Origin: a virus
Virus record (IMG/VR): IMGVR_UViG_3300044614_001845
Span: 6,689-70,688 of that record
Reading direction: 5' to 3' (one strand)
Length of the DNA stretch: 64,000 nt
Positions 1,745 through 35,566 of the stretch are shown here, piece after piece. The stretch's first letter is position 1. Each line of letters begins with the position of its first letter. The notes below the pieces were generated by a model. The model worked only from the letters and a program-made list of their open reading frames with translations. It had not been told where the DNA came from and did not search any database. A program made the position numbers and the translations under genes.

Positions 1745-1747
1745 GAA

Positions 1748-2943: not shown

Positions 2944-2950
2944 AATTGAA

Positions 2951-3660: not shown

Positions 3661-3673
3661 TCAACCAGCTGAA

Positions 3674-4913: not shown

Positions 4914-4970
4914 TTCTCTGTGAAAAGAATTTGCTTGTGAGAAGAGCGACTCGATTGCCGCTCTCAGTGC

Positions 4971-5007
4971 ATTGTAAGCGACGACGCGGCACATGTCAAG
5001 TACTAAT
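4971..5007 (-). promoter_or_regulatory. early sigma70 promoter P5
   Basis: ATTAGTAC-TTGACA-N17-TACAAT; hairpin at 4942-4965. Confidence 0.85.
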
Positions 5008-5011
5008 CAAT

Positions 5012-5745: not shown

Positions 5746-5790
5746 TTTTCTGACGATAAAAAAGACCGCTCTGTGTTGAACGGTCTTTGT

Positions 5791-5827
5791 ATTATAGCAT
5801 CAATCGCAAGACTTGTCAAGTACTAAT
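5791..5827 (-). promoter_or_regulatory. early sigma70 promoter P6
   Basis: ATTAGTAC-TTGACA-N17-TATAAT; hairpin at 5761-5788 followed by a U run. Confidence 0.9.
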
Positions 5828-6128
5828 CTTGACTGGCTCTTTCACACATTTGCTGAAATGTAATAAATCCAAGATCGTCATCCATTCCCTCCGCCTGCAT
5901 AATTTTTTCTCGCAGTTCAGATATTTGATTGACGTGCCTCATGATCACATCAGCCTTAACGGCGAGAGTTGTATAAATCTCACGACTTAACCAAGGCGTC
6001 AAAAAAGCAGCAATTTGTGCTTTTGTTTTTTCTCGCTTGAGTGTTTTAATGCAATCCTCAAGCTGTAAATGCAATCCCAGTAGGAGCGCGTTTAACTCGT
6101 AAGTGTAAAGCTCTGATTTTAGTTTCAT
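5823..6128 (-). CDS. hypothetical protein
   Basis: 101-aa ORF; stop inside the promoter octamer. Confidence 0.7.
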   Translation of the reverse strand: MKLKSELYTYELNALLLGLHLQLEDCIKTLKREKTKAQIAAFLTPWLSREIYTTLAVKADVIMRHVNQISELREKIMQAEGMDDDLGFITFQQMCERASQD

Positions 6129-6131
6129 GAT

Positions 6132-6593
6132 TCAATCAAGATAGCGGGAAGCTTTGCCACAGAAAACAAGATCCATGACACCGTGAAAATCAGTGGGAGC
6201 AACACTGTAATCATAATCACCATTGCCCTTAGTGATGAAATAAAACCTTGCAGTTTCACGAATAATTTTGTTTTGAACGCTGGCGAGACGATCATCTTTC
6301 ATCAAGCGCAGCATGTGAATCTCGACCGATGAGAAATCATACTCAGATTCTTCTTGTTTGCGCTTTTCATAAAGCTTGCAATACATGGGAAGAAACAAAC
6401 TGCCCAGCTCGCTAATCATCCACAAGCGTGTATCGCCTTCACGCATTTTATTCAAAATCTTTCGATCATGAATAGCAACGTCAGTCCAGTTGTGTCTGAC
6501 AACATCTTCTGCTTCAAAACACATCCACTCGTGAAGCGTTTTATTTCGCAGAATACGTTTAACAGGCTCTTGCCTGCTAATAATTTGTGTCAT
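6132..6593 (-). CDS. hypothetical protein
   Basis: ATG at 6593 downstream of P7. Confidence 0.7.
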   Translation of the reverse strand: MTQIISRQEPVKRILRNKTLHEWMCFEAEDVVRHNWTDVAIHDRKILNKMREGDTRLWMISELGSLFLPMYCKLYEKRKQEESEYDFSSVEIHMLRLMKDDRLASVQNKIIRETARFYFITKGNGDYDYSVAPTDFHGVMDLVFCGKASRYLD

Positions 6594-6629
6594 TTGCACT
6601 GTACGCAAAGTTGAATGAAGAACGATGCC

Positions 6630-6666
6630 ATTGTAACAGGTTTCAGCTTACTTGTCAAGTACTAAT
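6630..6666 (-). promoter_or_regulatory. early sigma70 promoter P7 (no hairpin)
   Basis: ATTAGTAC-TTGACA-N17-TACAAT. Confidence 0.85.
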
Positions 6667-6677
6667 CTGATTGCGCT

Positions 6678-7223
6678 TTACAAGAAAGAAACCTGGAGAT
6701 CAGGGTAAATAACTTTGTTCATCAAACGTGGCAAGATTTTTCTTGCTTCGCTGATTGGCAGAAATGGCTCCGTGCGAACAAACCCGCACTTTGAATAAGG
6801 ACATACCCATTTCGCAATGTTGTTGTGAACATAAATCAATGGGTACTCACTCTTGTTGCCAATCCAAATACAACCTTCATCAACTGCAACATGCGAATTA
6901 AAGCGAGTGCGAACAAATGGAAAGAAAGCGCCCTCAGCAGCTGCAAAATTATTGTAATCAAAGTAAATTCCACCCCACGCCCGCTGCTGTAACTGAAAGT
7001 ATCTATCAGTAAAAAGCCCAGGTATTTGAAATTCTTTCATTGCATTGCGCTCAATATCCAACTGATCTTCATAAATACTTTTAAGCCTCAATGAATAAGA
7101 TTTATTGTTTGTCAGCGCCTCTTTACAAAGCGCGAATCTTTTCTTCGTTTGCGTTTCTGTAAATAGCAGTGCTCCAGTCTCCGAATATTTGAAGTGCAAT
7201 TTCTTCACTCGCCTTTGTGTCAT
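6678..7223 (-). CDS. hypothetical protein
   Basis: 181-aa ORF. Confidence 0.65.
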   Translation of the reverse strand: MTQRRVKKLHFKYSETGALLFTETQTKKRFALCKEALTNNKSYSLRLKSIYEDQLDIERNAMKEFQIPGLFTDRYFQLQQRAWGGIYFDYNNFAAAEGAFFPFVRTRFNSHVAVDEGCIWIGNKSEYPLIYVHNNIAKWVCPYSKCGFVRTEPFLPISEARKILPRLMNKVIYPDLQVSFL

Positions 7224-7671
7224 ACCTTTCGACTTCCGACAAAATTGGACGCTTTGTTACTATAAAGCCTTTCAGGTATTGATGAAGCTTCCATCCATAA
7301 TCTTTTGCATCTAAATTCCAAAGCCATTCAAGTATTTGAAAAGAGCGCAGACGGCACCAATACCAGTAAGAACGAAACTTAACCGCGTCTGTTGGCAAAG
7401 AAATCTGCGCGACATAAAAAGTCTCTGAGCAAAGAAACTCTCCAACTTCGGGAGCACCAATACGATTTATGAAATAATTATTCCACCATCGCTGTTTTAA
7501 TTTGACGTTTGCTTTCAAAACCTGAAAATAGTATCTGCGTCGCATGACGTACAAAGCTTTCTCCTTCCAGTCAAGAGAAGCGTGCTTTCTAGCTTTTCCA
7601 CTGCGCGGAGAAAAGTCGTGAGGAGCTAACTGAATCCGATGCTTGAAGGCTTTTTTTGTAGCGCTACTCAC
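7123..7671 (-). CDS. hypothetical basic/aromatic protein
   Basis: 182-aa ORF, first gene of the leftward arm. Confidence 0.6.
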   Translation of the reverse strand: MSSATKKAFKHRIQLAPHDFSPRSGKARKHASLDWKEKALYVMRRRYYFQVLKANVKLKQRWWNNYFINRIGAPEVGEFLCSETFYVAQISLPTDAVKFRSYWYWCRLRSFQILEWLWNLDAKDYGWKLHQYLKGFIVTKRPILSEVERYDTKASEEIALQIFGDWSTAIYRNANEEKIRAL

Positions 7672-7720
7672 AAATCCATTGCGTGCGCGAAAGATTGTAG
7701 GTTACAGTCGATGAAAGCTT

Positions 7721-7927
7721 TTGAGGGCTCATGTCGTGTCTCGCTTCCTCTACGCCGTAATTGTGCCTGATGGCGCAAATGAAATCGGGAAGACAAAAAT
7801 TCTTTCCGGGCGCCTTCTTGAACAAGACACGCTGGAAGCGATTAAAACGGTAGAGCGCCTACATCCAGATGCGCTAGAGCTTCACGTCTACCGGGAGAAG
7901 GCTCATGCAATTTCCAGCGTCAGATGA
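7721..7927 (+). CDS. hypothetical protein
   Basis: first ORF of the rightward arm; start uncertain. Confidence 0.5.
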   Translation: MRAHVVSRFLYAVIVPDGANEIGKTKILSGRLLEQDTLEAIKTVERLHPDALELHVYREKAHAISSVR

Positions 7928-8177
7928 AGAAAAGCGGCTCGTGCATGAATCTGTACGCGAGTTAATCGAGTCGCTTTCTAAATCAGCGAGCCTTGCAAGT
8001 AATCTCGTTGCGTTCTTAAACGAAAACTTTCTGGCAATAAGCAAAGACTATAGAAAAGAACTTCTTGCAAGCGTCACGGAAATTGATGCTTCTTTATGGC
8101 ACTTGAGCCTGCAGGTTTACAACATGAATAAAGCGAAAGAAAGAATCATTAGCAAGCCTGAGCAAAAACGCTGTTGA
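7905..8177 (+). CDS. hypothetical helical protein
   Basis: 90-aa ORF. Confidence 0.6.
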   Translation: MQFPASDEEKRLVHESVRELIESLSKSASLASNLVAFLNENFLAISKDYRKELLASVTEIDASLWHLSLQVYNMNKAKERIISKPEQKRC

Positions 8178-21750: not shown

Positions 21751-21901
21751 TTCAATCAACCTGGAAGAACTCTTTCAGCAGTACTGGAAAGATTCTTTCC
21801 CATTTGCGCCCGCGAATAAGCAAAGCGCAGCCTCACACGTCGCTTTTGCTCAGTACGCAATCATGCAAGTAGAGGCATTGCGAAAAGAGAAAGATCAATG
21901 A
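21743..21901 (+). CDS. small hypothetical protein (not in ORF track)
   Basis: MPDSINLEELFQQYWKDSFP...; coupled to dcd. Confidence 0.55.
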   Translation: MPDSINLEELFQQYWKDSFPFAPANKQSAASHVAFAQYAIMQVEALRKEKDQ

Positions 21902-22425
21902 TTTTACATGACGCTGAGATCGAGCGGCTATGCAAAGAAGAGGCAATGATCTTGCCTTATGAGCCAGAGCAGCTCAATCCTGCTAGCTACGACGTGCGAT
22001 TGAGCGATCAGCTCATGATTGAATCAGTCGCAACTCAAGAGTTCATTCGGACGCCTATATCTGGATTCACCAAAGAGAATCCATGGTTGCTGCGTCCAGG
22101 GCAGTTTTGTCTTGGATGCACAGAGGAGCTATTGAACATGCCGGAGGACGTTGCTGGGCAGTTTGCGTTGAAGTCCAGCAGAGGGAGAGAGGGCTACTCT
22201 CATGCTCTCAGCGCCTTCATTGATCCTGGCTTTCACGGAAGCCGTCTAACGCTTGAGTTGCACAACATCAGGCAGGTACATCCGATTCCCTTGTATCCGG
22301 GAATGCTTATCGGGCAGATTGTATTTCAAAAGATGCTCGACACCCCACTTGTTAGCTACAAGCAAAAGGGGCACTATAACTTTAATGCAACTGTAATGCC
22401 TAGTATTTGGGCGCAGTCAAGCTAA
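21898..22425 (+). CDS. dcd: dCTP deaminase
   Basis: LNPASYDVRL, KSSRGREG, IDPGFHG, LTLEL, IGQIVF. Confidence 0.9.
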   Translation: MILHDAEIERLCKEEAMILPYEPEQLNPASYDVRLSDQLMIESVATQEFIRTPISGFTKENPWLLRPGQFCLGCTEELLNMPEDVAGQFALKSSRGREGYSHALSAFIDPGFHGSRLTLELHNIRQVHPIPLYPGMLIGQIVFQKMLDTPLVSYKQKGHYNFNATVMPSIWAQSS

Positions 22426-22656
22426 GTCTTCAAGTATATTCTTGTACTTATCAATAGAGAACTCCTCGCTCATATTTTTGCACGCTTCCATAATTGCCCA
22501 GTGAGCCCTGCTGTTATTAAAAGATGACTGATGATTAAGCAATAAAGCTAAATCAAGAAGTCCTTGGTAGTCTCTGCTCCTGAATAATTCCTTAAGGCGC
22601 TCTGCGTTAAGCCGCTCCTGGAATTGATCTTCGGCGCGATAGCTTGGAGATGACAT
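22417..22656 (-). CDS. hypothetical protein
   Basis: 79-aa ORF. Confidence 0.55.
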   Translation of the reverse strand: MSSPSYRAEDQFQERLNAERLKELFRSRDYQGLLDLALLLNHQSSFNNSRAHWAIMEACKNMSEEFSIDKYKNILEDLA

Positions 22657-22669
22657 TGACGTTCAAGAA

Positions 22670-22870
22670 ATGATTATGACTGAGATTACCGAGCCTTACC
22701 TTGAGGCGCCATGTAAAGAAAATGAGTGGAAGTGGCGCGTTTACGGAATCGGGATGGTGTGGGATCATGCGCAAGAGTGGCAGGCTCGATGGAAGCTCCA
22801 CTACTTACAGGTTTCACGAGGCACAACCACCGACAATGGCCCGCGACGCGACACAGGCTTACCTCAATGA
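22670..22870 (+). CDS. small Trp-rich hypothetical protein
   Basis: WRVYGIGMVWDHAQEWQA. Confidence 0.55.
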   Translation: MIMTEITEPYLEAPCKENEWKWRVYGIGMVWDHAQEWQARWKLHYLQVSRGTTTDNGPRRDTGLPQ

Positions 22871-23723
22871 GATAGGGCGATACCCCCTCCTGACGAAAAC
22901 TCAAGAGGTAATTCTTGGTACGCAGGTGCAGGCTTGGATGAACATAAAAGACAAAGATGAAAATCAATACACAGAAGAAGAGAAGCGCATAGCAAGAATT
23001 GGCAGGCGAGCAAGAGATAAATTCATCAAATGCAATCTTCGTTTAGTTGTAAATGTTGCACGCAAGTATGTCCCAAGATGCAACAGTCTTGACTTGATGG
23101 ATTTAGTGCAGGAAGGAAATGTTGGACTTGCAAGAGCTGTAGAAAAGTTTGACCCAACACGCGGGTATGCGATGAGCACATACGCATACTGGTGGATCAG
23201 GCAGGCGATACAAAGATCAATGCAATTCAGCGATGCAACAATTCGCCTACCAATTGGAATTCACGAATCAGTCATCAAGATCACAAAAACAACAGAGCGA
23301 CTGACAAAAGAGCTTGGGCGCGAGCCAACACTTGAAGAAATATCTATCGAGCTGGAAATTGCCATACCAGAGATCAAAGCAATACTTGATGCGCCAAGAG
23401 CCTCAACGAGCCTGGACAAACAGGCGAACGAATCTGATGGGAGTAGTCCGCTGATAGAACTAATCTCAGACTCCAAGCACTCCAACACGATAGAAGATGC
23501 AGAGCAAAGAATTGCAATTGAGGATGCGTATGCAGCGATAGAAAGTTATCTAGACGAAACCACGCAGTATGTGATCTTTGAACGCATGAAAGATCCGCCG
23601 ACGCCCTGGAAAGAGATCTGCGAGATTACAAAGATGACACGCGGAAGATTGCAACTAATGGAAAAGACTGGTCTACAACGCTGCGCACTCTTGCTGCGCA
23701 TCAAAAATAGATTCGATCTTTAA
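22836..23723 (+). CDS. RNA polymerase sigma70-family factor (group 2-like, lacks region 1.1)
   Basis: YLNEIGRYPLLT, NLRLVV, DLVQEG.VGL.RAVEKFDPTRGY..STYAYWWIRQ; start moved to ATG 22836. Confidence 0.92.
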   Translation: MARDATQAYLNEIGRYPLLTKTQEVILGTQVQAWMNIKDKDENQYTEEEKRIARIGRRARDKFIKCNLRLVVNVARKYVPRCNSLDLMDLVQEGNVGLARAVEKFDPTRGYAMSTYAYWWIRQAIQRSMQFSDATIRLPIGIHESVIKITKTTERLTKELGREPTLEEISIELEIAIPEIKAILDAPRASTSLDKQANESDGSSPLIELISDSKHSNTIEDAEQRIAIEDAYAAIESYLDETTQYVIFERMKDPPTPWKEICEITKMTRGRLQLMEKTGLQRCALLLRIKNRFDL

Positions 23724-24845
23724 TTACTTTGGCTGCGGGCAAGTACCAAGTTTGTAATCAACAAATAAATCATGCGGATCTGAATCTCTCAGCCAGCTGA
23801 CAAGCTTTCGATAGTCCGCTTCATTTGCAATTCCAATGCAACCTGCGGTGCCAGGTGAAGTTCTTGCATTGCTATCAATGTGAATCTCGATAGCACTGCG
23901 TTCAGTCCCCCCAGGCCCCAAATACCTCAGTGGTGTACTCACAGGCCCAAGGCCAGGCCCCCAGCTCCCCGAGTAGTTGTCCTTCCCACTCGCCCACTCA
24001 ATATCTTCAATGCCCCAGCGGCCCTCTGGAAGCGGTTCAAGGCTGCCAGCTCGACTGCGTGCCCCAACTCTGAATTGCTGCGCCCCAGGAGCCCCGGAAA
24101 CCACCAGTAGCGACCCGATTGATTCGCCGCCCTTGATGTACTCAAGCTTGAGTTGCTCAAGCCCACGTGCATCCAGCTTTCCCGTGCGAGTCAGCAGCAG
24201 ATGTGGCTTGGGGGCATTGGCAGGAATCGGACGTGCGCCAACAAAAAGATCAATTTCGTCTTTCCTGCGATTAACAAGTCCCTGTAAGATTTTGCCATCC
24301 GCCTTATTCCAACGTGGCAGCTCTTCAATAACAACTTTTACGGGATCTTCTTTGTTGAACAGTCTTTTGCGCAGAGTGCTTTCTTCTAATGCCCCAAGTC
24401 CAACATTGTAGGCGAAGGAAATAATTGCAGCAGTTTGCTCAGGGCGCCAAGTTTTTGCCATTGGCAGCAAAGCAAAAACACCCGGCGCAAAGAGATTCTC
24501 TACTTCATTTTGAAGCAGCTCTTCTGCCATGTCTTGTGTAATCTTGTCCCCCATTCGCACGGCGCGATCAATGAATCGAGTTGCGCCATATCCAATTGTC
24601 GGAACACCAGCTGGGCACTTATACGCCTCCAGTCTGCAGCCCTCCCATTTCCTGATAAGTCTGAGTGCAGGTGCAAGCCATGCAGGCGCAAGTGGTTGTT
24701 TCTGCAGTGGATCAGCCCGATACAACTCCGCAAACTCCTTCAGCACTTCATCAGAAAGCTTCCCCTGCAGCCAATCCCAAGCTGCAAGTTGATGCGGTAG
24801 TTCCTTGAAATGCTTTGCAGCACTGCGCAGTTGAATTGCACTCAT
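23724..24845 (-). CDS. endolysin: GH24 lysozyme plus C-terminal L,D-transpeptidase/Tlde1-like domain
   Basis: E-x8-C-x5-T (EGCRLEAYKCPAGVPT), GLVNRR; PLPEG...IEIH...GTAGC. Confidence 0.85.
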   Translation of the reverse strand: MSAIQLRSAAKHFKELPHQLAAWDWLQGKLSDEVLKEFAELYRADPLQKQPLAPAWLAPALRLIRKWEGCRLEAYKCPAGVPTIGYGATRFIDRAVRMGDKITQDMAEELLQNEVENLFAPGVFALLPMAKTWRPEQTAAIISFAYNVGLGALEESTLRKRLFNKEDPVKVVIEELPRWNKADGKILQGLVNRRKDEIDLFVGARPIPANAPKPHLLLTRTGKLDARGLEQLKLEYIKGGESIGSLLVVSGAPGAQQFRVGARSRAGSLEPLPEGRWGIEDIEWASGKDNYSGSWGPGLGPVSTPLRYLGPGGTERSAIEIHIDSNARTSPGTAGCIGIANEADYRKLVSWLRDSDPHDLFVDYKLGTCPQPK

Positions 24846-25547: not shown

Positions 25548-27965
25548 TTATGCAAACCTCAGCGAGAATTGATGTAGACCTTGATTGGCGGCATCAGATA
25601 GAACAAACATGCGGGTGCCGTCAGGAGACACGCGAACGCCCCAAGGTGTACTTACTGCTCCTGTTAAGCCATACAGAGGGATTAGCTCAACAGTGCTCAG
25701 CGTTGCAGTGGAGAGGTCGCTTGGAGAGGTCATTGCAATTTGCCTGACTTGACGCCCGCCATTCGCGGCACTGTTGTCAACAGTGGCGTAGATTCGCAAG
25801 CCATCAGCCATAACATGAACGCCAAATGATCCAGTCAAAGCAAGGCTCTGCGAAAGTGTGGCCGTGCCCAGTTCATAAGCAGTGCTTAATGTGTATTTGC
25901 GAATGTTGTCCGCGTCGCCCGCAAGAAACAACAACGTACCATCATTATTAACGTGAATACCACGCGGGGCTGATTCCGTGCCGCCTACATAAATAAATCC
26001 CTTAGCTGTGCTGATGTCCCAAGCTGTGCCAAGCTGGATTTCATATACAACATCGTTTGTAGATCCAACAAGATAAATTTCTGTGCCGTCATTTTTGAAG
26101 GTCACTCCTAGAGGAGAAGTTTCAAATCCAACAGATAATGCTTGTACAAATGAAATTGTTGATACGTTCCAGGCTGTAGATAGTGAAAACTCCCTAACTG
26201 TGTCATTCGTTGGGCCGGTAACGTACATCTTTGTACCGTCATCTTTGAACCATAATCCTGTAGGAGTTGCTTCGCCAATCGTTGCAGATACACGCACAAA
26301 AGATGCAGTGCTGATATTCCAAGCGGTGCTCAGATCGTATTCGTTTACATCATCGCCAGTAGCACCAGTAACATACATCTTGGTGCCGTCTGGCTTAAAG
26401 AATAAAGCGCTAGGAACGGTTTCTTGTTCATGGACCAAGTATCGACCCGTAACCGAACGTGGTTCCCAAGCAGTCGTAAGAGAATACTGGATAATACGAT
26501 CTGCGGTGTCTCCAACAATGTACATCTCCGTGCCATCATTCTTAAAGGTCATCCCTTGAGGTGTTGCATCGCCTGCAAAATAATATCCAAGGAATGAAAT
26601 TGTAGACACATCCCATGCTGTACTTAAACTAAAAACTCTTACAGTATCTGAACCTGTCCCAACCACAAACATTTTGTCGCCGGAAGATGAAAAGAAAACT
26701 GCACTTGGAGCTGTGTCGCCAGTGCCAGCAGATGCTCTCACGAATGATGCAGTTGAAATATCCCATGCTGTAGAAAGTGCATACTGATTAACGTCATCGC
26801 CAACAGTGCCAATGACGTACATCTTGGTGCCACTATCACCAAAGAATAAACCAGTGGGAACAGTTTCTTGACCTGCTACGCTAAATGAAACGGTATCATA
26901 AGTTGCAGTTGAGACATCCCATGCCGTTGACAGGCTGTATTGAAAGATCGAATCGGTGATATTGTTTAAGATATACATCTTGGTGCCATCATCCTTAAAA
27001 AATAAATCTGTACTCTCAGTTGCTTGAGCGTTGACACTTACACTTTTATTTGCATAGCTAGCTGTTGTGACATCCCAAGCTGTGCTTAATGTATATTGAA
27101 AGACAATATCGGTGGTTGCTCCAGGACTCATGACATACATTTTGGTGCCGCTATCATCAAAAGCAACGCCACTGATAGTGGTCGTTTGCCCTGACACAAG
27201 GAACGACTTGGCTACATAATCAGCAGTTGCAGTTGAAATATCCCATGCGGTAGACAATGTATACGAAAGGATGACGACGTTTGTACCACCAATTACATAC
27301 AGCTTTGTTCCGTTATCTCGAAAAAATAAAGCAAACGGAGTTGCGTCTAGCGTAGTTACGCTTAAACTTTTATTAGCATAAGAAGCGGTGCTTACGTCCC
27401 AAGCCGTGCTTAGTGTGTACTGATATACGGTATCATTCGTGCCACCCATGATGTACATTTTGGTGCCACTGTCACCAAAGAACGGTGTGCGTGGTGTGGC
27501 ATCTTGCGTGCCTACATAAAACTTTTTAACGTCAACCGTAGCTGTAGCTAGATCGTAAGGCGTGGAAAGCGTGCAGGACCACACAGTGTCTACAGCGTAG
27601 CCCGTAAAAAACAAACGAGTGCCGTCATCGCTAATTGCAATTCCGTTACAGTTAAGGTCGTAGTCACCGACTACCAAACTCTTACTGGAGTAAACAATGG
27701 TTGAGAGATCCCAGGGCGTTGTGCATTCGTACTGAAAAATGGTTGCAGTCAGTCGCGTGCCGCGCACAGCAACGTAAACGTAGCGACCATCGCGGCTAAC
27801 ATCAAAACCCTCTTCAATACCAGAACTACTCAGGGCATTGAAAACACCGTCATAGCTAAAGCGGCTGATGTATTTTTTGGCGTCTTGTAGCGCTACTGCG
27901 TCCTCGGGCTGATACACCCCGCTGGTGCGCTTGTTATCTGTGCCGCCGATCAGTCCGAGCCTCAT
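25548..27965 (-). CDS. beta-propeller repeat protein (putative receptor-binding/fibre tip)
   Basis: roughly 15 repeats of ~50 aa: DGTKMYV.G...D.V.QY.LSTAWD.STA. Confidence 0.8.
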   Translation of the reverse strand: MRLGLIGGTDNKRTSGVYQPEDAVALQDAKKYISRFSYDGVFNALSSSGIEEGFDVSRDGRYVYVAVRGTRLTATIFQYECTTPWDLSTIVYSSKSLVVGDYDLNCNGIAISDDGTRLFFTGYAVDTVWSCTLSTPYDLATATVDVKKFYVGTQDATPRTPFFGDSGTKMYIMGGTNDTVYQYTLSTAWDVSTASYANKSLSVTTLDATPFALFFRDNGTKLYVIGGTNVVILSYTLSTAWDISTATADYVAKSFLVSGQTTTISGVAFDDSGTKMYVMSPGATTDIVFQYTLSTAWDVTTASYANKSVSVNAQATESTDLFFKDDGTKMYILNNITDSIFQYSLSTAWDVSTATYDTVSFSVAGQETVPTGLFFGDSGTKMYVIGTVGDDVNQYALSTAWDISTASFVRASAGTGDTAPSAVFFSSSGDKMFVVGTGSDTVRVFSLSTAWDVSTISFLGYYFAGDATPQGMTFKNDGTEMYIVGDTADRIIQYSLTTAWEPRSVTGRYLVHEQETVPSALFFKPDGTKMYVTGATGDDVNEYDLSTAWNISTASFVRVSATIGEATPTGLWFKDDGTKMYVTGPTNDTVREFSLSTAWNVSTISFVQALSVGFETSPLGVTFKNDGTEIYLVGSTNDVVYEIQLGTAWDISTAKGFIYVGGTESAPRGIHVNNDGTLLFLAGDADNIRKYTLSTAYELGTATLSQSLALTGSFGVHVMADGLRIYATVDNSAANGGRQVRQIAMTSPSDLSTATLSTVELIPLYGLTGAVSTPWGVRVSPDGTRMFVLSDAANQGLHQFSLRFA

Positions 27966-28324
27966 CAGGAGATCTCCTCGTAACCGATCACCAGCTCTAG
28001 GTCGCTAGCTGCACTTGCCAAGGCACGGATACTGTCGCCTTCCTCCAGATAGAAGTAGGTCTCCTTGGTGCTGAGCACCTGCGTGGCGTCAGCAGGCACC
28101 GTGATGGTTTTGGCGATGTGGCGATCCGTCGTGCCGTCGTAAATGCTCACGCTGATATCAGCGGCGTTCACGCCATCCACGTTGGCGCAAAAGATGCTGT
28201 TGATCTTGAGCACCTTGCCACTGGAGGCGCCGTTACTCAGAGCAGCGGCCAAGCTAGTAGTGACGGCGTAACGAGCTGTGCGCCCCAGGATTGTCGTCGG
28301 TGACTTGAGATTTGGGGCGGCCAT
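27965..28324 (-). CDS. 119-aa virion adaptor-like protein, paralog A
   Basis: paralogous to 32112-32471 (KINSIFC.N...LEEGDSIRALAS...YEEI). Confidence 0.8.
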   Translation of the reverse strand: MAAPNLKSPTTILGRTARYAVTTSLAAALSNGASSGKVLKINSIFCANVDGVNAADISVSIYDGTTDRHIAKTITVPADATQVLSTKETYFYLEEGDSIRALASAASDLELVIGYEEIS

Positions 28325-28515
28325 CAGAAGATCATCCCAGAAACAACTGGATCGACGCCAGCTGCGCTAGCCCCGACCTCAACCATTGCCCCAGCAGCAT
28401 TTTTCACATAAAGCTTTCCGGCTGTTTTATCCCAGCCGGGCTCAGCAACATCAAAGTCGGCTGGATTCGGAGTGGTTGTACCCTGCCGAATAACAATCTT
28501 ATTATTACGAGGCAT
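28324..28515 (-). CDS. mini fibre linker (Mtd N-terminal-like domain plus DPVVSGMIF tail)
   Basis: KIVIRQG...AEPGWD...KLYV. Confidence 0.7.
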   Translation of the reverse strand: MPRNNKIVIRQGTTTPNPADFDVAEPGWDKTAGKLYVKNAAGAMVEVGASAAGVDPVVSGMIF

Positions 28516-29783
28516 CAGTATGTTCCTCCATCAATATCAAAACCACTTACTGCACCATTTTCAAGGAAAGTGACCAAATCGCTAAAAGCAACTTGAACCA
28601 TCGTTCCGTTGTCGTTAACCACCATTCGATCTGCAAGAGCCAGCGTGGTAGCAGTAGCAGATGTGGAGCCATCAATAATGGCGACTTCACTTGAAGTCAG
28701 CAGGGACAGCGCAGTAGCAGCGCCGGTTTGCATCCCAGAGAGCGTGTCAAGATCGGCGTCCCAAGCCTGAACATTCGTCCCAATCGCCAAGCCAAGACTG
28801 GTGCGAGCCGACCCAGCATCAGTTGCCCCAGTGCCACCATCGGCGATAGCAAGAGTGCCTGTGATCGCAGATGCGCTGAGATCAAGAGCAAGCTCGGTGC
28901 TTTCGATCACCAAGCCGCCATTTGCTTTCAGGTCAACGCTGACCACGCCTGCAGTGAAGTCAATTCCATCGCCAGCACTCAGAGTCTCCTGGGCGTTGAT
29001 GGTGATAGAACCACTGGCGTTGGTAATGCTGATGCCAGTTCCAGCAGTCAGGGTGGCTTTAGTCAAAGACCCGCTGGAATTACCAATCAGCAATTCGCCG
29101 TTTGCGTAGCCATTTGCATAACCAGTTCCACCAAGCGCAGTAGAAACTGTCGTAAATCCAGTTCCAAGGGCGCCGCTTGTCAGAGTTCCAACCGAAGTTA
29201 GCGAAGAACTAACAACAGTAGACCCAAGCGCTGTTTTTGAAAGAACGCCAGCGCCATCAATGCGATATGAAAGCCCAGCAGTTAGCTCTACGTTTTGATT
29301 GAACGTCCAGCTATCTGTTGAGTCATACCAAAGAATTGACTTATCAGTTGTACCTTTGAGAATGATCCCGCCCGAATCAGCGCCCGCATCTGTTGGAGTT
29401 GCGGTAGAACCAAGCTCAATATTTTTATCGTCTGTTGATACGGTCGTTGAGTTAATAGTTGTAGTTGTACCATTAACTGTTAAATCACCACCAATCGTAA
29501 CGGCGCCAGTTGTAGTAAAACCACTTACTGTTGCGCCGGAAATATCAAATCCACCCGTAAAAGTCTTGGCACCACTGACTGTTTGAGTACCAGTTAGATT
29601 CAGATATGCGCCATCGCCGCCAATTGCAATAATTGAAGTTGCTGTACCACCAGCGCCCCCGGTACCTTTTCCATACCAAAGGACATCGTTGATTTCGTTA
29701 AATGCAAGTTCTGCATTCTCAAGGGAAGACGGTGCGCCAGTAGCGCCAGAAACCCGCCGCCTAATACGAATCGTGTTGGCCAC
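28515..29783 (-). CDS. tail fibre protein
   Basis: N-terminal IRIRR...ELAFNE...LWYG; G/T/S-rich; GGTGAT repeats; ends DIDGGTY. Confidence 0.85.
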   Translation of the reverse strand: MANTIRIRRRVSGATGAPSSLENAELAFNEINDVLWYGKGTGGAGGTATSIIAIGGDGAYLNLTGTQTVSGAKTFTGGFDISGATVSGFTTTGAVTIGGDLTVNGTTTTINSTTVSTDDKNIELGSTATPTDAGADSGGIILKGTTDKSILWYDSTDSWTFNQNVELTAGLSYRIDGAGVLSKTALGSTVVSSSLTSVGTLTSGALGTGFTTVSTALGGTGYANGYANGELLIGNSSGSLTKATLTAGTGISITNASGSITINAQETLSAGDGIDFTAGVVSVDLKANGGLVIESTELALDLSASAITGTLAIADGGTGATDAGSARTSLGLAIGTNVQAWDADLDTLSGMQTGAATALSLLTSSEVAIIDGSTSATATTLALADRMVVNDNGTMVQVAFSDLVTFLENGAVSGFDIDGGTY

Positions 29784-30085
29784 TAAAAATTACCTCCATC
29801 GGTAAGTGTTGTTTTTGTGATTGTGGCGTCAAGACGAAAACTGTCAGAGGCCACGTCGTAATAGAGCAGGCTCCTATCTACCTTAGCGCTCGCATCTACA
29901 TCCGACATTCCGGCGAGTGAAGATACGCCAGACGGTCCCGGTGGCCCTTGTATTCCAGGAGGCCCCTGAGGCCCTTGAACAACAGTCGAAATAACAGTTG
30001 ACTGCGGTACAGTAACAACTGTCGTCTTGCTATTTTCTGTTACTACGACAGTATTTTCAACAGATGTGATATTTACGGAAGTCAT
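29783..30085 (-). CDS. collagen-like fibre connector
   Basis: GPQGPPGIQGPPGPSG; ends TDGGNF. Confidence 0.8.
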   Translation of the reverse strand: MTSVNITSVENTVVVTENSKTTVVTVPQSTVISTVVQGPQGPPGIQGPPGPSGVSSLAGMSDVDASAKVDRSLLYYDVASDSFRLDATITKTTLTDGGNF

Positions 30086-30420
30086 GCCGAATACCCTTGA
30101 GAGACGTAGATAATCCCCTCAAGATAGTATTCACGAAGCCCGCCAGCATTTACAAGCAAAACATCGTAGTAAACTTCATCTGGCAAGGTTGCCGTTTGCG
30201 TATTCGTCAGCAGAAGATCAACAGTGCCATTCGGGCGATCAGTGTAAGTTACTCCAAAGTCAGCATATTTTGTTGTTCGCCCACGATCCCAAACTTGAGC
30301 GATAACTGTCCAGCCAGTTAAATTGATTGCGACGTTAGAGCCGTCCTTAAATTGCAGGCGAACGGGATGATCCGCTCGCCTTTGCAAGGAGAAGTTGTAT
30401 GTCCCAGGTGTGACTGCCAT
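30082..30420 (-). CDS. BppU/LtfC-like fibre attachment protein
   Basis: INLTGWT..AQVW...G.V.L.LT..QT..L...YDV...YYLEG. Confidence 0.7.
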   Translation of the reverse strand: MAVTPGTYNFSLQRRADHPVRLQFKDGSNVAINLTGWTVIAQVWDRGRTTKYADFGVTYTDRPNGTVDLLLTNTQTATLPDEVYYDVLLVNAGGLREYYLEGIIYVSQGYSA

Positions 30421-30429
30421 AAGGCAAGT

Positions 30430-30567
30430 CTACCGGCCTTGACCACGCAAGGGTTTTTTGCCTCTGCGACGAGGGCGACTGTGCTGACCGAATCCCTGTG
30501 AAGTTGTTTTCGGGGGACCAGCTTTGTGCTCAACGCGAGCGGTGCCGACCTTACTTTTAACAGCCAT
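30430..30567 (-). CDS. small basic cyanophage-type protein ending RGQGR (not in ORF track)
   Basis: MAVKSKVGTARVEHKAGPPKTTSQGFGQHSRPRRRGKKPLRGQGR. Confidence 0.75.
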   Translation of the reverse strand: MAVKSKVGTARVEHKAGPPKTTSQGFGQHSRPRRRGKKPLRGQGR

Positions 30568-31103
30568 CAGCCTTCCTCCTGAGCAGCGTCATCAAGCGAC
30601 GGGAACAGCTCATCAATAAATGCCTGCGGGAGGTTGAACTGATTAGCAAGCTCTCCGACACTTTCAATTACTGCGTCAGAAATAAGATTAGCTGCAAAAG
30701 CAGCTTTCCAGCTATTCACAAAAATCCTGCTGTCGCCAACACTTGCATCCTTCAACCCGACAATCATCCCGCCGTAGAGACCGGGTGCAGCACTGATCAA
30801 GCCACCGAGCATCTCATTGATTGCCGCATCGCTCATTGCTGCAGCAGAGAACTCAACCCAGTGTGGAGTCGGCGGCGCAGGAGGAATCTCTACAACGTCA
30901 AACGACGTGCCATTCCAATTCAACGCTTGAGTCGCAGGATCATACTCAGGCTGCTCGATCAGAACGTAACCGGCTTCTGCAATCTCATCCTCGGTAAAGG
31001 TGCTGGGATCAGTGCGTGTAAATCCATTCGCAAGCGTAATGCGAAAAGGAAGTGGGGCAGGTGCTGCGCCGTTGAAAGAGTAAAGAACTGACATGGCAAT
31101 CAA
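30567..31103 (-). CDS. tail fibre assembly-like protein
   Basis: TRTDPSTFT..EI..AGY...P.YDP.TQ.L.W; follows fibre-tip gene. Confidence 0.65.
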   Translation of the reverse strand: MIAMSVLYSFNGAAPAPLPFRITLANGFTRTDPSTFTEDEIAEAGYVLIEQPEYDPATQALNWNGTSFDVVEIPPAPPTPHWVEFSAAAMSDAAINEMLGGLISAAPGLYGGMIVGLKDASVGDSRIFVNSWKAAFAANLISDAVIESVGELANQFNLPQAFIDELFPSLDDAAQEEG

Positions 31104-31110
31104 GAAAAAG

Positions 31111-32112
31111 TTAAGGCACTGCGTACCTAATGATTACAATCCCGGAGCCGCCAGCACCCGAAATGAGGGTGCCGGGTTGGCTCAAGGTTGCGCCTCCGCC
31201 GCCACTGCCTGTATTTGGCGCTCCATTCATTGGCGTGCGACCAGCCGGAAGAGCGTAATTTCCAACTGCAATACCACCCTGTCCTCCTCCCCCTAAGCCA
31301 CCAAGCCCTGTCGAAGAACCAACATTGTTGTTGCTCAAGGCGCCACCACCACCACCGCCCGCATAATACAAGCCGATCCCATTAATTGATACCAAAACAC
31401 CATTGCCGCCATTTCCGGGAGCGCTGATAGTTGCATTTGCGCCAATGCCTCCAGCGCCACCACCGCCACCAGATCCGTATGAGCTGCCAGAAGAAAGAGC
31501 CGGAGCGCTTCCGCCATTATTTCCCTGACCAGCCGTTCCTTGGCCGCCCAATTTTATACCGGTAGATGGAGGGTAACAGCCACCACCGCCAGAGCCGCCA
31601 TTTAAGCCAACTCCAGCACTCACGCCATTTCCAGAACCGCCGCCGCCCCCTAGGGCTACCAGGGAACTGAATGAACTATTCCCTCCGTTTAGCCCATCCT
31701 GCGTTCCAGGCAGAGCACCCGCCCCAACAACAACCGTATAACTTCCAGAGGCGAGCGATGTCAGAGTTCCAGTCAGAAGACCGCCTGCGCCACCACCACC
31801 GCCACCACCGCTGGCATTAATGCCGCCAGAACCGCCGCCGCCAACAATCAAATACTCAACTGTTTTTGCACTTGGCAAAACGAATGATGATGTTCCAACC
31901 GTTGTAAATTGATGCACGGCATAAAGCTGCGCACCAACTTGTATGTTGTAAACATCTTGGCCGCCAGTTGCAATTGAAACAACGGTGGTACTGGGCCACT
32001 TCTGCGTAGCCCTTCCCTTATAGACCTCTTGGAGGCTCCAGATTCCAGGCTGTTTCTGACTCTTTGTAGGGGAAAAGTCCCCATTAATAAAACCACCGTT
32101 GAATCCAGCCAT
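31111..32112 (-). CDS. glycine-rich domain virion protein (putative fibre tip)
   Basis: EYLIVGGGGSGG...GGSGIVIIRY; N-terminal GIWSL motif. Confidence 0.8.
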   Translation of the reverse strand: MAGFNGGFINGDFSPTKSQKQPGIWSLQEVYKGRATQKWPSTTVVSIATGGQDVYNIQVGAQLYAVHQFTTVGTSSFVLPSAKTVEYLIVGGGGSGGINASGGGGGGGAGGLLTGTLTSLASGSYTVVVGAGALPGTQDGLNGGNSSFSSLVALGGGGGSGNGVSAGVGLNGGSGGGGCYPPSTGIKLGGQGTAGQGNNGGSAPALSSGSSYGSGGGGGAGGIGANATISAPGNGGNGVLVSINGIGLYYAGGGGGGALSNNNVGSSTGLGGLGGGGQGGIAVGNYALPAGRTPMNGAPNTGSGGGGATLSQPGTLISGAGGSGIVIIRYAVP

Positions 32113-32471
32113 TACGCAATCTCCTCATAGGAAATAGTCAGAGTCAAATTGCTACTAGCGGAAGCAAGGGCGCGAATCAAATCACCCTCAAGCAGATAAA
32201 CGTAGGTCTCTTTTGTTCCAATCATCAAAGTAGACGAACCAGGAACAGTAATATTCCTTGCAATGTAGTAATCAACACCAGAGCGTTGAATTGCAACAGA
32301 AATGTCCGCAGGAGTAGCAGCAGTGATATTCGAGCAAAAGATCGAATTCACCTTAAAAACCTTGTTGCTTGCAGCTGCATTTGTTAGTGCAGTGCCAAGG
32401 TTTGTAGTGGGTGCGTAATAAACGGTGTTACCAACAATGGAATTGGCGTACCTGAGGTTAGGATTCGTCAT
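32112..32471 (-). CDS. 119-aa virion adaptor-like protein, paralog B
   Basis: paralogous to 27965-28324. Confidence 0.8.
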   Translation of the reverse strand: MTNPNLRYANSIVGNTVYYAPTTNLGTALTNAAASNKVFKVNSIFCSNITAATPADISVAIQRSGVDYYIARNITVPGSSTLMIGTKETYVYLLEGDLIRALASASSNLTLTISYEEIA

Positions 32472-35400
32472 GAGAAAAGCATTCCGAAGATGGGGTTGTC
32501 AGGAGCCTGTTGGGATCTCCAATAGTTTAGCCCTTGTACCGTCACAACTTGAGGAGCAGGATCGGCATCAATTGCTGCATTGATTTGAGTGTCAGTTCCG
32601 GTTGGAGTTGTTGTGTTTCGCAATGCCTGAGCACTTGCGAGACGAACAGGACCAGTGCGAGTTGTTTGTGCGTTGTTGACCTCGGGCAAGCCAGTGATGG
32701 TACCCGTCACATTCAATGAATTAACCGTCAGTGTGTCGGTAACATTCAAGAACGGGAAGGTCGTATTTTGGAAGTCATCAACAGAGCTGCTTCCAATATT
32801 TTCAACGCTTAGCGTTGTACCTGTTTCAACATCCTCAAGGCCCCTAGGCGAAACATTGAAGCCATCCTCGTTGCTACCTTGCGGAACAACACGACCACCA
32901 AGATCATTCGTAAAGTAATACGTGAACTTGTTTTGATCGCTCAGATCCTTCTGCGCAGCTGGGAACGACTTGGAGTAGTTCAGGTAGCCAGCCCACTCCC
33001 AAGCGTGCCCATAGAGCCGTAGGACCGATGGACGACGCATCTCCACTGCCCAGTTAGCCCGACCCGTTGCAGCCCCACCAGACGGCGCCGTGGGGAAGTC
33101 CACAGTGCTGGTTGGATCAAGCAGGCGAGCAGTGGAAAGTCTCGGTGTCAATGCCGTATGAGCGGCTGCGGTAGTAAAACCAAGCTCAACCAAGAAGAAA
33201 TGAAGGCCCTTGTAGTCCGTTGAAGACCTATAAATGTCTTGAACGGCTTTATAAGCAAGATCTTCTTGCGTTGTACCAGTTGTAGTCCAGATCGTTGTCC
33301 AGTTAATGCCAAGAGTCGTGCTATAGGGATTGGTGTCACGATCCCAGTCAATCTTCAGGATCTGGCCCTCTTCATCAATTCTGTCCTCTGCGTTGTAATC
33401 AGAACGCATGTGGACATAAATCTCCTTCCATACGCTGATATCGGGCGATGTAGAAGAAGTCCTGTTTGATTTAATTGCTTGATAGTGCTTGTTGTTGTGC
33501 TTAACAACTGTGCCGACAGGATAGTAAGTGTTATTTGCATATGTAATGCTTGGCGCACCACGGCGAATGGTGATCTCTGCCGTGCTCACAACGCCATCAC
33601 CGGCCAGCAAGCCAACGCCTGTCTGGCTGACAAGAACAATCTCATCGGTCGTGCTAAGAGTCCGCGAAATACCACCACCTGCGCCACGGTTAGGATCGGT
33701 CTGAAGTACGAAGTTGCGCTGGGGCAAGCGAGCGACTGCCGTGTTGTTCAGATAGATAGAAGCGCGACGTTCAGCCGGTGTGCGCGTATCAACTACACGG
33801 CGAACATAAACACGTTTGCCAGGTGCAAGGTTGACGCCATCTGGATCAGTAATTGAATCCTGTCCAGTCAGGGCGGCGGTAATGTTAATGACCGTTGGAG
33901 CAGTAGAACTCCAAGCAGAAGTAGCTAGTGGGGCATACCAAGGCTTACCAGCTGGATTTTCAACCCAGAGGTAAGTGGTCGGCATGAAACTATAGCCATC
34001 CTTATAAAGAATGTCAGGTACAGTCGATGACTCGCTGTTAATTGCGAGCCCAGTCGTCAACGTGATAGTTGTGCTAGTAACAGAATCAATTGTGCCAAGA
34101 TAGATGTAACGAACGTTGCCTGTTTTTTCGCTGAGATTCAGCGGAACACGCAAAGAGCCAACCGACCAGTTTTTGTCAGATGGGAACGCGAAGCTCTTGT
34201 AGCCCTTGCTAATTGCAGCGCAGCCACCAAAAGAGCTGTTGCTGTTGGTGATCGTGATTTCACCGCCGTTATCGGTGAAGTGATGAACACCATGCCCAAT
34301 GGCAAAAACAGAAACTTCTTGGATGAAGCAATCGTTGACAGCAGTGATATGCCGACTCATGCGAGCCGGATTCATGCGAATGTCGTTGGGGCTAGTGGAA
34401 ATGTAAGTAGCGTAGTTGGCGTCAACAGTTGTGGTACTGATCGCAGACCAAGTATTTGTCACATAACGCTGCCAGCAGCGCATGTCTTTCTGAAGTGAGA
34501 CGCCGGTAAAGTTGGCGCACACCATCGACTTCAGACCAGTGACCTTAGCGCCATCCATAAAGGCGCCAGACATTCCATAGTCAGATCGAATAGAGCAGTT
34601 AAAAATATAAGGAGAGGCACTGGCAGTTGTATCCCACGCAGAAGTGGGATTTTGAGTTGTATCAATCGGTCCTACGATTTCATACTCAGTAGTTTTCGTT
34701 GTTGCGAGAACAGAACTAAGGTCTGCGCCAGTGCCAACGGTGTTACGGCACTTGGTGTAGAAGTCGTCAAGTTCAGTCTTACCGCCAAACTGGAAAAGAT
34801 CAAGCAGGTGGTGGCTTTGGGCAAGGTTCACCTTGTCCATCGCGGTGAATCCAAAGAAGTACCCCGTACCGGTAATCTTGAAGATTGCGCAGCGATTGCT
34901 GTAGTTAGCAGTCTCGTCGGCAAGGGACGGGACATAGTTCGGGCGAATCGTGGTCTTCCTAAGGTCAGGACCACACAGCGAGCAACCACGAGGCAGCAGC
35001 AGACCGCCGACAACAGGGTTGAAGGCGATCAATTCAGCTGTAGTCGGGGTTTTGTCGGTACCCCAGCTGGCCAGCGCGGTTGAAGCGCTACCGGGATCGT
35101 TGTAAACGGTGTGAGTACCAGGCGAAAGAACAATGCTTACAGCATCAATATTCGCCCTTACATCCGTGTAGGTGTACCAGTTCTTAGATGTAATAATTGC
35201 TGCTTCGATGACAGCCCTGTTGATTGTTTTGAACGGGCGCTGAGGCGTATAGCCACAAGTCATCCGTTGCTTCTCAAGTCGCTTCAGCTTTTGGGCAATC
35301 TTTTCCTCGTCCGTGCCAGAAGCAAGCTCGTAGCTGTTATATGCACCACCAACAAACCTATCGCTACCCGTGTAAGGATTCACATACAAAACAAAGGGTG

Positions 35401-35566
35401 CGCTCAGCGGATCAAGGCTGGCTGCGCTACCTGCAACTACATTTGCGTCGCCGCCGACTTGACGAAACAGATCAACGAGGGTGGCCAGCTGCTGCCTTAG
35501 CTGCGCCTGCGTTACGTTGATGTCATCAAGAGCACCAGATGCGCCTGCTTGAGTTAACTGGGGCAC
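32468..35566 (-). CDS. large tail fibre/tailspike protein (possible beta-helix)
   Basis: 1032 aa; LYVNP...PFKTINRA, SPYIFNCS; ends NPIFGMLFS. Confidence 0.8.
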   Translation of the reverse strand: MPQLTQAGASGALDDINVTQAQLRQQLATLVDLFRQVGGDANVVAGSAASLDPLSAPFVLYVNPYTGSDRFVGGAYNSYELASGTDEEKIAQKLKRLEKQRMTCGYTPQRPFKTINRAVIEAAIITSKNWYTYTDVRANIDAVSIVLSPGTHTVYNDPGSASTALASWGTDKTPTTAELIAFNPVVGGLLLPRGCSLCGPDLRKTTIRPNYVPSLADETANYSNRCAIFKITGTGYFFGFTAMDKVNLAQSHHLLDLFQFGGKTELDDFYTKCRNTVGTGADLSSVLATTKTTEYEIVGPIDTTQNPTSAWDTTASASPYIFNCSIRSDYGMSGAFMDGAKVTGLKSMVCANFTGVSLQKDMRCWQRYVTNTWSAISTTTVDANYATYISTSPNDIRMNPARMSRHITAVNDCFIQEVSVFAIGHGVHHFTDNGGEITITNSNSSFGGCAAISKGYKSFAFPSDKNWSVGSLRVPLNLSEKTGNVRYIYLGTIDSVTSTTITLTTGLAINSESSTVPDILYKDGYSFMPTTYLWVENPAGKPWYAPLATSAWSSTAPTVINITAALTGQDSITDPDGVNLAPGKRVYVRRVVDTRTPAERRASIYLNNTAVARLPQRNFVLQTDPNRGAGGGISRTLSTTDEIVLVSQTGVGLLAGDGVVSTAEITIRRGAPSITYANNTYYPVGTVVKHNNKHYQAIKSNRTSSTSPDISVWKEIYVHMRSDYNAEDRIDEEGQILKIDWDRDTNPYSTTLGINWTTIWTTTGTTQEDLAYKAVQDIYRSSTDYKGLHFFLVELGFTTAAAHTALTPRLSTARLLDPTSTVDFPTAPSGGAATGRANWAVEMRRPSVLRLYGHAWEWAGYLNYSKSFPAAQKDLSDQNKFTYYFTNDLGGRVVPQGSNEDGFNVSPRGLEDVETGTTLSVENIGSSSVDDFQNTTFPFLNVTDTLTVNSLNVTGTITGLPEVNNAQTTRTGPVRLASAQALRNTTTPTGTDTQINAAIDADPAPQVVTVQGLNYWRSQQAPDNPIFGMLFS

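Follow-up and report, generated by a model that had tools for sequence, protein, structure and literature searches.

The subject of this analysis is a cluster of eleven genes in the virus record IMGVR_UViG_3300044614_001845 of IMG/VR, of which a stretch of 64,000 nucleotides (nt), positions 6,689 to 70,688 and hereafter called the window, was analyzed. The record as a whole is complete, with a length of 70,688 bp and direct repeats at its termini, and the eleven genes all lie on the minus strand of the window, running from position 35566 down to 25548, with tail genes directly upstream. The cluster is made of two branches, and each of them contains a protein of 119 amino acids (aa), here called the adaptor, that stands between a protein ending in a short hydrophobic peptide, the tag, and a putative receptor-binding protein, the tip, which starts with a conserved motif, the plug. 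The conservation of this triple in other viruses, and what it may say about the way the fibers are put together, are the topics of the following sections.

Branch 2 comes first in the direction of transcription. It begins with a spike or tail fiber of 1032 aa (32468..35566), which matches phrog_529, a tail fiber family (E 2.9e-97), and ends with NPIFGMLFS, a tag of the GMLFS class. Next to it are adaptor B (119 aa, 32112..32471), with the N-terminal arm MTNPNLR and a match to the adaptor-family profile at E 5.4e-43, and the glycine-rich (Gly-rich) tip of 333 aa (31111..32112), which carries the plug MAGFNGGFING...PGIWSL at residues 1 to about 40 and matches PF21722 Gly_rich_2. The branch closes with a 178-aa gene (30567..31103) at the position of a fiber-assembly chaperone, matched by phrog_28130 (E 3e-27, function unknown). 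Between the two branches there is a basic open reading frame (ORF) of 45 aa (30430..30567; MAVKSK...RRRGKKPLRGQGR) with a weak match to phrog_516 (E 2.2e-4); it overlaps with the stop codon of the 178-aa gene, occupies the 146-nt "gap" before the next gene, and is conserved in four related loci (L022, L026, L055, and L080).

Branch 1 starts with a 112-aa protein (30082..30420) that matches phrog_1084, of unknown function (E 7.7e-20), and phrog_3304 (E 1.7e-8). A collagen-like linker of 100 aa (29783..30085) follows, with the G-x-y run GPQGPPGIQGPPGPSG and the end TLTDGGNF, and then a fiber shaft of 422 aa (28515..29783), which starts with MANTIRIRRR, ends with FDIDGGTY, and matches phrog_30158 (E 3.4e-27), phrog_6002, and phrog_31660, "tail fiber". 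The shaft leads to a protein of only 63 aa (28324..28515), referred to here as the converter, which starts with MPRNNKIVIRQG and consists of an N-terminal domain of the I-x-I-R type, a short linker, and the tag DPVVSGMIF. Adaptor A (119 aa, 27965..28324), a jelly-roll protein with the conserved N-terminal arm MAAPNLK, and the β-propeller tip of 805 aa (25548..27965), which starts with MRLGLIGG...SGVY and has MRLGLIGGTDNKRTSGVY as its N-terminal plug, complete the branch.

An original prediction, made from the letters of the window, had described ten of these genes as a daisy chain. The ORF list bears out the genes and the end motifs that it quoted, with the exception of the supposed gap, where the 45-aa ORF had been missed. 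Its remark that nearly all junctions are translationally coupled also agrees with the sequence: stop and start codons overlap by 1 or 4 nt (ATGA, TGATG, TAATG, or TAGTG) at eight of the ten junctions, and the remaining two have spacers of 7 and 9 nt. The label "BppU-like" for the 112-aa protein fared less evenly, being compatible with the PHROG matches and finding no counterpart in Pfam or the PDB. The family phrog_3304 is annotated "L-shaped tail fiber protein assembly", which we take to be linked to T5 p132 or BppU, and the 112-aa protein is probably a collar or anchor. The collagen-like linker scores 18.3 bits against PF01391, below the cut-off of 27.2, and about five G-x-y triplets are readable in it; in related loci, the tagged upstream proteins are tail-fiber and collagen-like proteins, and 6 of 32 pass that cut-off. 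Sequence searches of the PDB with the spike, the shaft, the 112-aa protein, and the Gly-rich tip gave nothing significant.

Tag, adaptor, and plug in related loci

Of the 308 relatives of adaptor A in the viral-contig collection, the best 80 loci, whose adaptors are 75–100% identical to it, were examined for the genes on either side. The tag ...DPV[IV]xGMIF ends 64 of the 80 genes upstream of an adaptor and 1 of 594 other ORFs, and that single exception adjoins an adaptor that had been missed by the gene chaining. On the other side, both halves of the plug motif start 73 of the 81 downstream genes as against 7 of 575 other ORFs, and all seven of the latter belong to tandem arrays of tips, as their second or third gene. 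The proteins that carry these motifs vary widely in size, with 50 distinct lengths from 51 to 1167 aa for the upstream partners and 43 distinct lengths from 117 to 819 aa for the downstream ones, and the adaptor and tip genes overlap at 77 of 81 junctions (60 at −1 and 17 at −4).

The converse test dispensed with the adaptor. A degenerate DNA pattern for DPVIAGMIF followed by a stop-like triplet matched 40 stretches of the same collection; in all 40 the match ended at a stop codon, and in all 40 an ORF of the adaptor family came directly next. Loci of the adaptor B type behave alike, as the tag NPIFGMLFS is found upstream of all six such adaptors. The triple also persists when adaptor identity falls to 37–47%, with tag variants such as ...AIAMAMVFGG, ...AIAMSIVFGG, ...AIAFSIIFGL, or ...TGKAIAMAMVFGG, and it is present in S-SKS1, DSL-LC04, and the pelagiphage HTVC033P.

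A profile search across all loci raised the number of adaptor ORFs to 143, in 139 loci, and 115 of the 138 upstream ORFs that could be examined bear a hydrophobic tag of the ...F type. By class, 64 adaptors are preceded by an end of the form xMxF, 39 by AxAxxxFGx, 6 by GMLFS, 3 by QIFN, 3 by ANIVF, 9 by WWG[NS], and 14 by other ends, while 5 lie at a contig edge. The N-terminal arm of the adaptor tracks the class of the tag: PNLK goes with xMxF, PNLR with GMLFS, PNIV mostly with AxAxxxFGx, and PNLF with QIFN. These loci are mutually related, so the counts describe a conserved grammar and not that many independent events. With this proviso, the gene-neighbor statistics agree with what had been predicted, in that tag, adaptor, and plug follow one another in a non-random and exclusive manner over about 140 viral loci, on carriers of varying size and fold.

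The tag is under selection as a peptide and not as DNA. In a set of 50 tags, 29 distinct DNA sequences encode only 9 peptides, with 1539 synonymous versus 349 non-synonymous codon differences, which argues against a purely DNA-level recombination signal.

Some loci elaborate on the basic pattern. A single adaptor can be followed by a tandem of two or three tip genes that all carry a plug (L068, L015, L080, L091, L097, and L001), and these may be alternative tips for one socket. In seven freshwater loci (L128, L131, L138, L141, L142, L144, and L147) a second Gly-rich tip starts with M[AP]TGLFTL[KR]QQ.QA..Q.AW; it keeps the second half of the plug only, and the two halves may thus be separable elements. 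Upstream of giant tagged fibers, three loci encode a distant adaptor-like protein of 113–114 aa that starts with MALALNNY... or MAAVALN... (L001, which is S-SKS1, 3463-3807; L028, 341-682; and a 113-aa ORF in L043). The S-SKS1 copy was matched by the adaptor profile, and the gene that precedes this protein has a hydrophobic end (...LSLGGF, ...ILSLGAL, or ...NPLIIALG), which hints that a like joint exists closer to the virion end of the fiber.

Folds, fusions, and converter genes

Adaptors A and B are paralogs, as originally proposed, with 55% identity over their 119 aa (E 1e-44), and the family to which they belong comprises 1174 cluster representatives (50% identity) at E ≤ 1e-3. Neither adaptor has a Pfam or PHROG match, adaptor B has no NCBIfam match, and the nearest Atlas clusters are all viral and all annotated "hypothetical protein". 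Against PDB sequences, the best E value was 0.54 when the single sequence was searched and 0.012 with the profile, neither of which is significant. The AlphaFold2 model of adaptor A, in turn, is of high confidence, with a predicted local distance difference test (pLDDT) score of 94.6, and has nine strands arranged in a single jelly-roll β-sandwich. Its best fold matches, at Z 8–9.6, are the trimeric cement protein of phage KHP40, cores of the nucleoplasmin type, and Ena subunits, values close to the best Z of 7 to 8 that is typical of models without a clear match. These matched jelly-roll proteins are trimers, pentamers, or helical polymers, and the adaptor was modeled as a monomer. The first eleven residues, the arm MAAPNLKSPTT, are the lowest scoring of the model (pLDDT 78 for the first ten-residue block) but it is here, at M1, P4, and N5, that conservation across the family is highest.

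In a survey of fusions, which covered the 150 best adaptor representatives and 30 longer proteins, the adaptor was repeatedly found in one polypeptide with other domains. Nine longer relatives consist of the adaptor followed by a C-terminal domain, which, in those that Pfam recognized, is Laminin_G_3, CBM_4_9, or Gly_rich_2. Other relatives carry a domain, a propeller or another type, inserted into the adaptor itself, in the loop of residues 62–68 in five proteins and after residue 36 in one, and three clusters (P0001, P0008, and P0151) contain tandem adaptors. In P0100, the propeller inserted within the adaptor domain is 36% identical (E 7e-31) to the 805-aa tip of the window; a receptor-binding domain of this kind is therefore covalently attached to the adaptor in some phages.

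The tips share the plug but not the fold. In a non-redundant set of 40, made of 36 k-mer cluster representatives of 64 distinct complete tips plus the two of the window and those of DSL-LC04 and HTVC033P, there are 12 matches to Gly_rich_2, 9 to Laminin_G_3, 7 to SGL (of the β-propeller type), and 2 to F5/8 type C. The propeller tip of the window matches PF10282 Lactonase (47.4 bits, cut-off 21.7, E 2e-12) and also PF08450 SGL (46.3 bits, cut-off 26.3, E 5.3e-12), and the Gly-rich tip matches PF21722 with 93.7 bits (cut-off 24.3, E 2.1e-26). The AlphaFold2 model of the latter (pLDDT 84.8) has a well-folded core and superposes on 7ypx_A, the Pam3 fiber, with Z 15.3 and a root-mean-square deviation of 2.9 over 182 residues at 25% identity (Foldseek E 1.1e-5, profile E 2.6e-4). 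The Bxb1 tail-tip chain 9d93_Qa comes second with Z 14.7, and after it the list drops to unrelated structures with Z values of at most 7.5. On the basis of the model, this tip is a TNF-like/glycine-rich fiber of the Pam3 gp24 type whose plug, when modeled alone, is disordered: residues 1–23 score below 50, and the sole helix, a short one at residues 27–35, scores about 57.

Homologs of the 178-aa gene (MLYSF..PLPFRI.LPNGFTRTD) stand behind the tip in most related loci. A search of PDB sequences, among them the Pam3 fiber entry 7ypx, gave no match for this gene.

A second type of junction lies between the upstream segments of branch 1. The rule that an end of the type DGGx[FY] announces a start of the I-x-I-R type (M..I.I[RK][RNQ]) extends to the related loci, where 25 of 27 such ends lead into such a start and, of the 31 starts of this type, 25 come after such an end, with 16 distinct junctions in total (scripted count). 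Two further recurrent junction types between fiber segments occur in L006, L009, L016, L055, and L092, namely ...[FY]R[IV]VV[LIV]G or ...TIVVVG followed by MA[RQ][KQ]F..., and ...AG[LF]ARL[TLI] followed by M[AP][RK]K[FI]FTD.... A search with regular expressions for in-frame fused forms of the three junctions, in six frames of the loci, gave a single match that proved spurious.

The idea that the 63-aa protein converts one junction into another gained support from its relatives. In the alignment of the 63-aa protein (A2), the positions D55, P56, V57, M61, I62, and F63 are invariant, and 26 distinct mini-proteins of 54–130 aa combine differing N-termini with the same tag, all ending in a Gly-rich linker plus ...VDPVIAGMIF. 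At least six unrelated types of N-terminus can be told apart by eye: MPRN.KI.IR.G; MANLIRHKRG or MANTIKIRRS; MARKFLNGID; MARQFLTDIEL; MSLVRQTANLV; MPYKFNPF, and MAIDFPSSP. In L020 (190 aa) and L015 (297 aa), a collagen-like segment bears the tag directly, hence the same endpoints are joined by one polypeptide or by several.

The identity assigned to the I-x-I-R-type domain was not confirmed. It had been called "Mtd-N-like", after Mtd_N, the family name and accession of which we take to denote the N-terminal domain of Mtd from the Bordetella phage BPP-1. For the 13 members of A2 there is no Pfam match even at E ≤ 10, and hhalign of A2 against BPP-1 Mtd returned a probability of 0.5%, and not at the N-terminus. 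In BPP-1 itself (L100; 4599-6125 and 3438-4583), the protein Bbp9, encoded before mtd, ends with ...ANIGLADLGGIA (...ADLGGIA) and Mtd starts with MSTAVQFRGGT; judged by the letters, the two may loosely echo the pairing of DGGx[FY] with I-x-I-R-G, as a weak resemblance.

Proposed fiber assembly and its alternatives

The explanation that we favor, with a probability of roughly 0.6, is that the region encodes two host-recognition fibers assembled end to end from separately translated segments, with the adaptor as the last joint. Branch 1 would proceed from the 112-aa anchor to the collagen-like linker, the 422-aa shaft, the 63-aa converter, adaptor A, and the propeller tip, and branch 2 from the spike to adaptor B and the Gly-rich tip, with the chaperone-like gene behind. 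Every joint would be non-covalent. The adaptor, presumably a trimer in the virion, would receive on its proximal side the free C-terminus of the segment before it, a hydrophobic peptide made of a Gly-rich linker plus ...DPV[IV]xGMIF, or NPIFGMLFS in branch 2, and its conserved N-terminal arm may take part in this binding. The distal side of the adaptor would grip residues 1 to 25–40 of the tip (M..G[FL]NGG[LF]IG...G[VI][WY]), otherwise disordered. Further upstream, the contact between a DGGx[FY] end and a start of the type M..I.I[RK][RNQ]G would join the collagen-like linker, the shaft, and the converter, and the sole role of the converter would be to change one junction type into the other.

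Several points weigh against this assembly. No physical interface was obtained, and binding, stoichiometry, and order are inferred from genomics; a complex of three adaptor A chains (alignment A1) with three 63-aa chains (A2), predicted without controls, scored 0.14 versus a mark of 0.32 and counts neither way. Because the loci are interrelated, the counts, and with them the Fisher test of the DGG pairing, overstate the number of independent events. The covariation of tag class and adaptor arm spans only about six classes, and as tag and arm are adjacent in the DNA, linkage alone could yield it. Then there are adaptors with other neighbors: 9 follow a protein of about 250 aa ending with ...EWWG[NS], 14 follow other ends (4 of them ...NAIKYLRS and 2 ...LNRTYITK), and 4 are followed by a protein without plug (MAVTKQTYTATA...). 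A fiber fused to an adaptor was absent from the fusion survey, save for the odd single-member cluster P0159. Finally, judging from the model, fused tips leave from the C-terminus whereas inserted domains are located in loops, so that either face could be the distal one. As to the plug-and-socket code of the original prediction, then, the non-random pairing of motifs, the selection on the tag, and the adaptor–tip fusions speak for it, the homology to Mtd_N found no support, and the docking itself is an inferred step.

Three other explanations compete with this one, and they are taken here in descending order of weight. The adaptor could be the terminal knob of the tagged fiber and the "tips" independent fibers that dock elsewhere, for instance on the baseplate, their adjacency being due to a shared host-range cassette. 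The structural homology of the Gly-rich tip to Pam3 gp24, which docks on the baseplate according to PMC9608196, would fit, as would L097 and L098, which have adaptor and tips without a tagged upstream fiber, and the fact that one adaptor can precede two or three tandem tips. We nevertheless hold this unlikely, given that the adaptor–tip fusions and the tip domains inserted in adaptors make the two one unit in many phages, that stop and start overlap at 77 of 81 adaptor–tip junctions, and that the plug occurs only directly behind an adaptor or another tip. A little less likely still is a 119-aa protein that acts as an assembly factor, such as a trans-acting cap or trimerization chaperone, and is released before the virion matures, with tag and plug as its recognition signals. 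Chaperones are often encoded by small genes beside those of the fibers, distal parts of fibers are bound by Pam3 gp25 and by Tfa of phage Mu (PMC9608196), and the hydrophobic free C-terminus of the tag could be of the kind that a chaperone might shield; a separate conserved gene, however, already sits at the chaperone position behind the tip, tandem duplications of the adaptor exist (P0001, P0008, and P0151), and receptor-binding domains fused to the adaptor or inserted in it make little sense for a chaperone that is released.

The conserved gene ends might also bind nothing and be recombination linkers for the swapping of fiber modules. This would account for a mosaicism that falls exactly at the gene boundaries, with 50 upstream and 43 downstream partner lengths for the same adaptor, and for the joint inheritance of tag and adaptor, which are always passed on together. 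A DNA signal would, however, show the opposite of what is seen in the tag, where 29 DNA sequences collapse into 9 peptides and synonymous differences outnumber non-synonymous ones by 1539 to 349, and the tag is still recognizable at 37–47% adaptor identity; we therefore give this possibility little credit, the least of the three.

A broader proposal can also be formulated, which we put forward as tentative and rather doubtful. A small and orthogonal set of peptide "addresses" at gene ends might serve aquatic phages to assemble their fibers combinatorially from up to six gene products, with converters of 54–130 aa translating one address into another and the adaptor as the universal socket. At least three address types are seen, in which the hydrophobic tag leads to the jelly-roll adaptor, DGGx[FY] to the I-x-I-R-type domain, and ...R[IV]VV[LIV]G to a start of the type MA[RQ][KQ]F.... 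The socket would take up the tag as a free C-terminal strand, and it would present the different tip folds non-covalently, as C-terminal fusions, or as loop insertions. Were this proposal true, the sequence alone could suffice to read and re-wire tip specificity, in cyanophages and pelagiphages as well as in phages of fresh water.

Related systems and genomic setting

A close parallel in the literature is the gp38 adhesin of T-even phages of the T2/T6/S16 type, a separately encoded protein that sits non-covalently on the distal end of gp37 and has a glycine-rich receptor-binding domain, as set out in PMC12032242 and PMC9608196. Both systems have a conserved N-terminal attachment domain and conserved ends that flank shuffled variable parts (PMC12032242). 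Unlike gp37–gp38, here a third protein, the 119-aa jelly-roll, stands between fiber and tip, the fiber ends in a short peptide that hangs free from a Gly linker, and one plug serves at least four unrelated tip folds. No sequence relationship to T-even gp38 was found, the tip having no sequence match in the PDB; gp38 (6F45) is not among the rows listed by the fold search, an absence that carries no weight. The system thus works like the gp38 system and is not a member of it.

The Gly-rich tip also invites a comparison with Pam3. As reported in PMC9608196, gp24 is a trimer with a glycine-rich receptor-binding end that docks on the baseplate via an N-terminal helical domain, and gp25, encoded downstream of it, is its chaperone. 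The tip of the window has the same TNF-like and glycine-rich fold, and the next gene is at the chaperone position. In contrast to the long N-terminal helical bundle of gp24, its N-terminus is a short Gly-rich motif that is disordered in the model, and its gene, unlike that of Pam3, always lies behind an adaptor. A looser likeness is found in the Klebsiella phages KP32, KP34, and K11, whose receptor-binding proteins attach via a separate anchor or docking domain on the first of them and whose modules are exchanged (PMC8262889, in excerpt). The indirect attachment of exchangeable receptor-binding modules is common to both, whereas proteins and folds are different, and the excerpt of PMC8262889 mentions no short tag, jelly-roll adaptor, or converter gene.

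With regard to the adaptor alone, the KHP40 cement protein (7dou_4, Foldseek E 1.5e-4, Z 9.3) shares its single jelly-roll, and so do the nucleoplasmin cores and the Ena spore-appendage subunits, which the model matches at Z 9.6 and 9.2. These proteins have different roles and only 3–16% identity to it, and Z values this near the common range indicate a resemblance of fold only.

Searches of the literature on S-SKS1, HTVC033P, DSL-LC04, cyanosiphoviruses, and modular fiber adaptors, supplements lying outside this coverage, yielded no description of the adaptor, the tag, or the plug. The papers on HTVC033P (PMC9038755) and DSL-LC04 (PMC10611076) do not discuss these genes in the portions of text available, and their supplements may hold annotations. 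What is new with respect to the known systems is the adaptor family, the short terminal peptide addresses, and the converter mini-genes, and we read the cluster as a new variant of modular, non-covalent assembly of receptor-binding proteins. Confirmation of the binding would extend the known modes by which these proteins are attached with a new and very compact joint.

Few parts of the genomes of marine and freshwater phages are as hard to predict as those for host recognition, and in the cultured relatives most genes of this cluster are annotated as hypothetical. The motifs of adaptor, tag, and plug offer a simple sequence rule for spotting fiber segments, receptor-binding tips, and the likely connections between them, and the same rule predicts natural exchange points for tips. 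The adaptor family occurs in at least three named groups: it is found in S-SKS1, a cyanosiphophage, in HTVC033P, a pelagiphage of the HMO-2011 type, and in DSL-LC04, a freshwater phage.

The virus of the window is cyanophage-like. Megablast of the 10-kb region against isolated phages gave no match, and the portal protein shares only some 26% identity with its counterparts in Prochlorococcus siphophages. A 2579-aa ORF of the record is read as the tape-measure gene by its size and position. As for the relatives, L015 (7000-7308) and L018 (6972-8051) carry, a few kb from the fiber module, ORFs starting with MTATI..QQ...NRLYVGWFGVLM that by eye are psbA-like (D1 protein), so at least these two are cyanophages. 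Genes for 2-oxoglutarate (2OG)-Fe(II) oxygenases lie directly downstream of the tips in DSL-LC04 (L002, 5324-5944) and HTVC033P (L003, 10533-11877). The bacterial and archaeal genome collection gave a single match, L148 (CALGUV010000039.1), with an adaptor 82% identical to adaptor A; it is a 50-kb contig of a metagenome-assembled genome labeled Microbacteriaceae, and may represent either a prophage or a contig from a phage that was binned with that genome.

Outside the fiber genes, the region adjoining the cluster (21898-24845 of the window) encodes a dCTP deaminase (PF22769, E 2.7e-31), a phage lysozyme of 373 aa bearing a long C-terminal extension, and a factor of the sigma-70 type in which regions 1.2, 2, and 3 are present. 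Base composition is uneven along the window, with a G+C content of 39–42% over positions 1-8000 versus 45–57% over the remainder.

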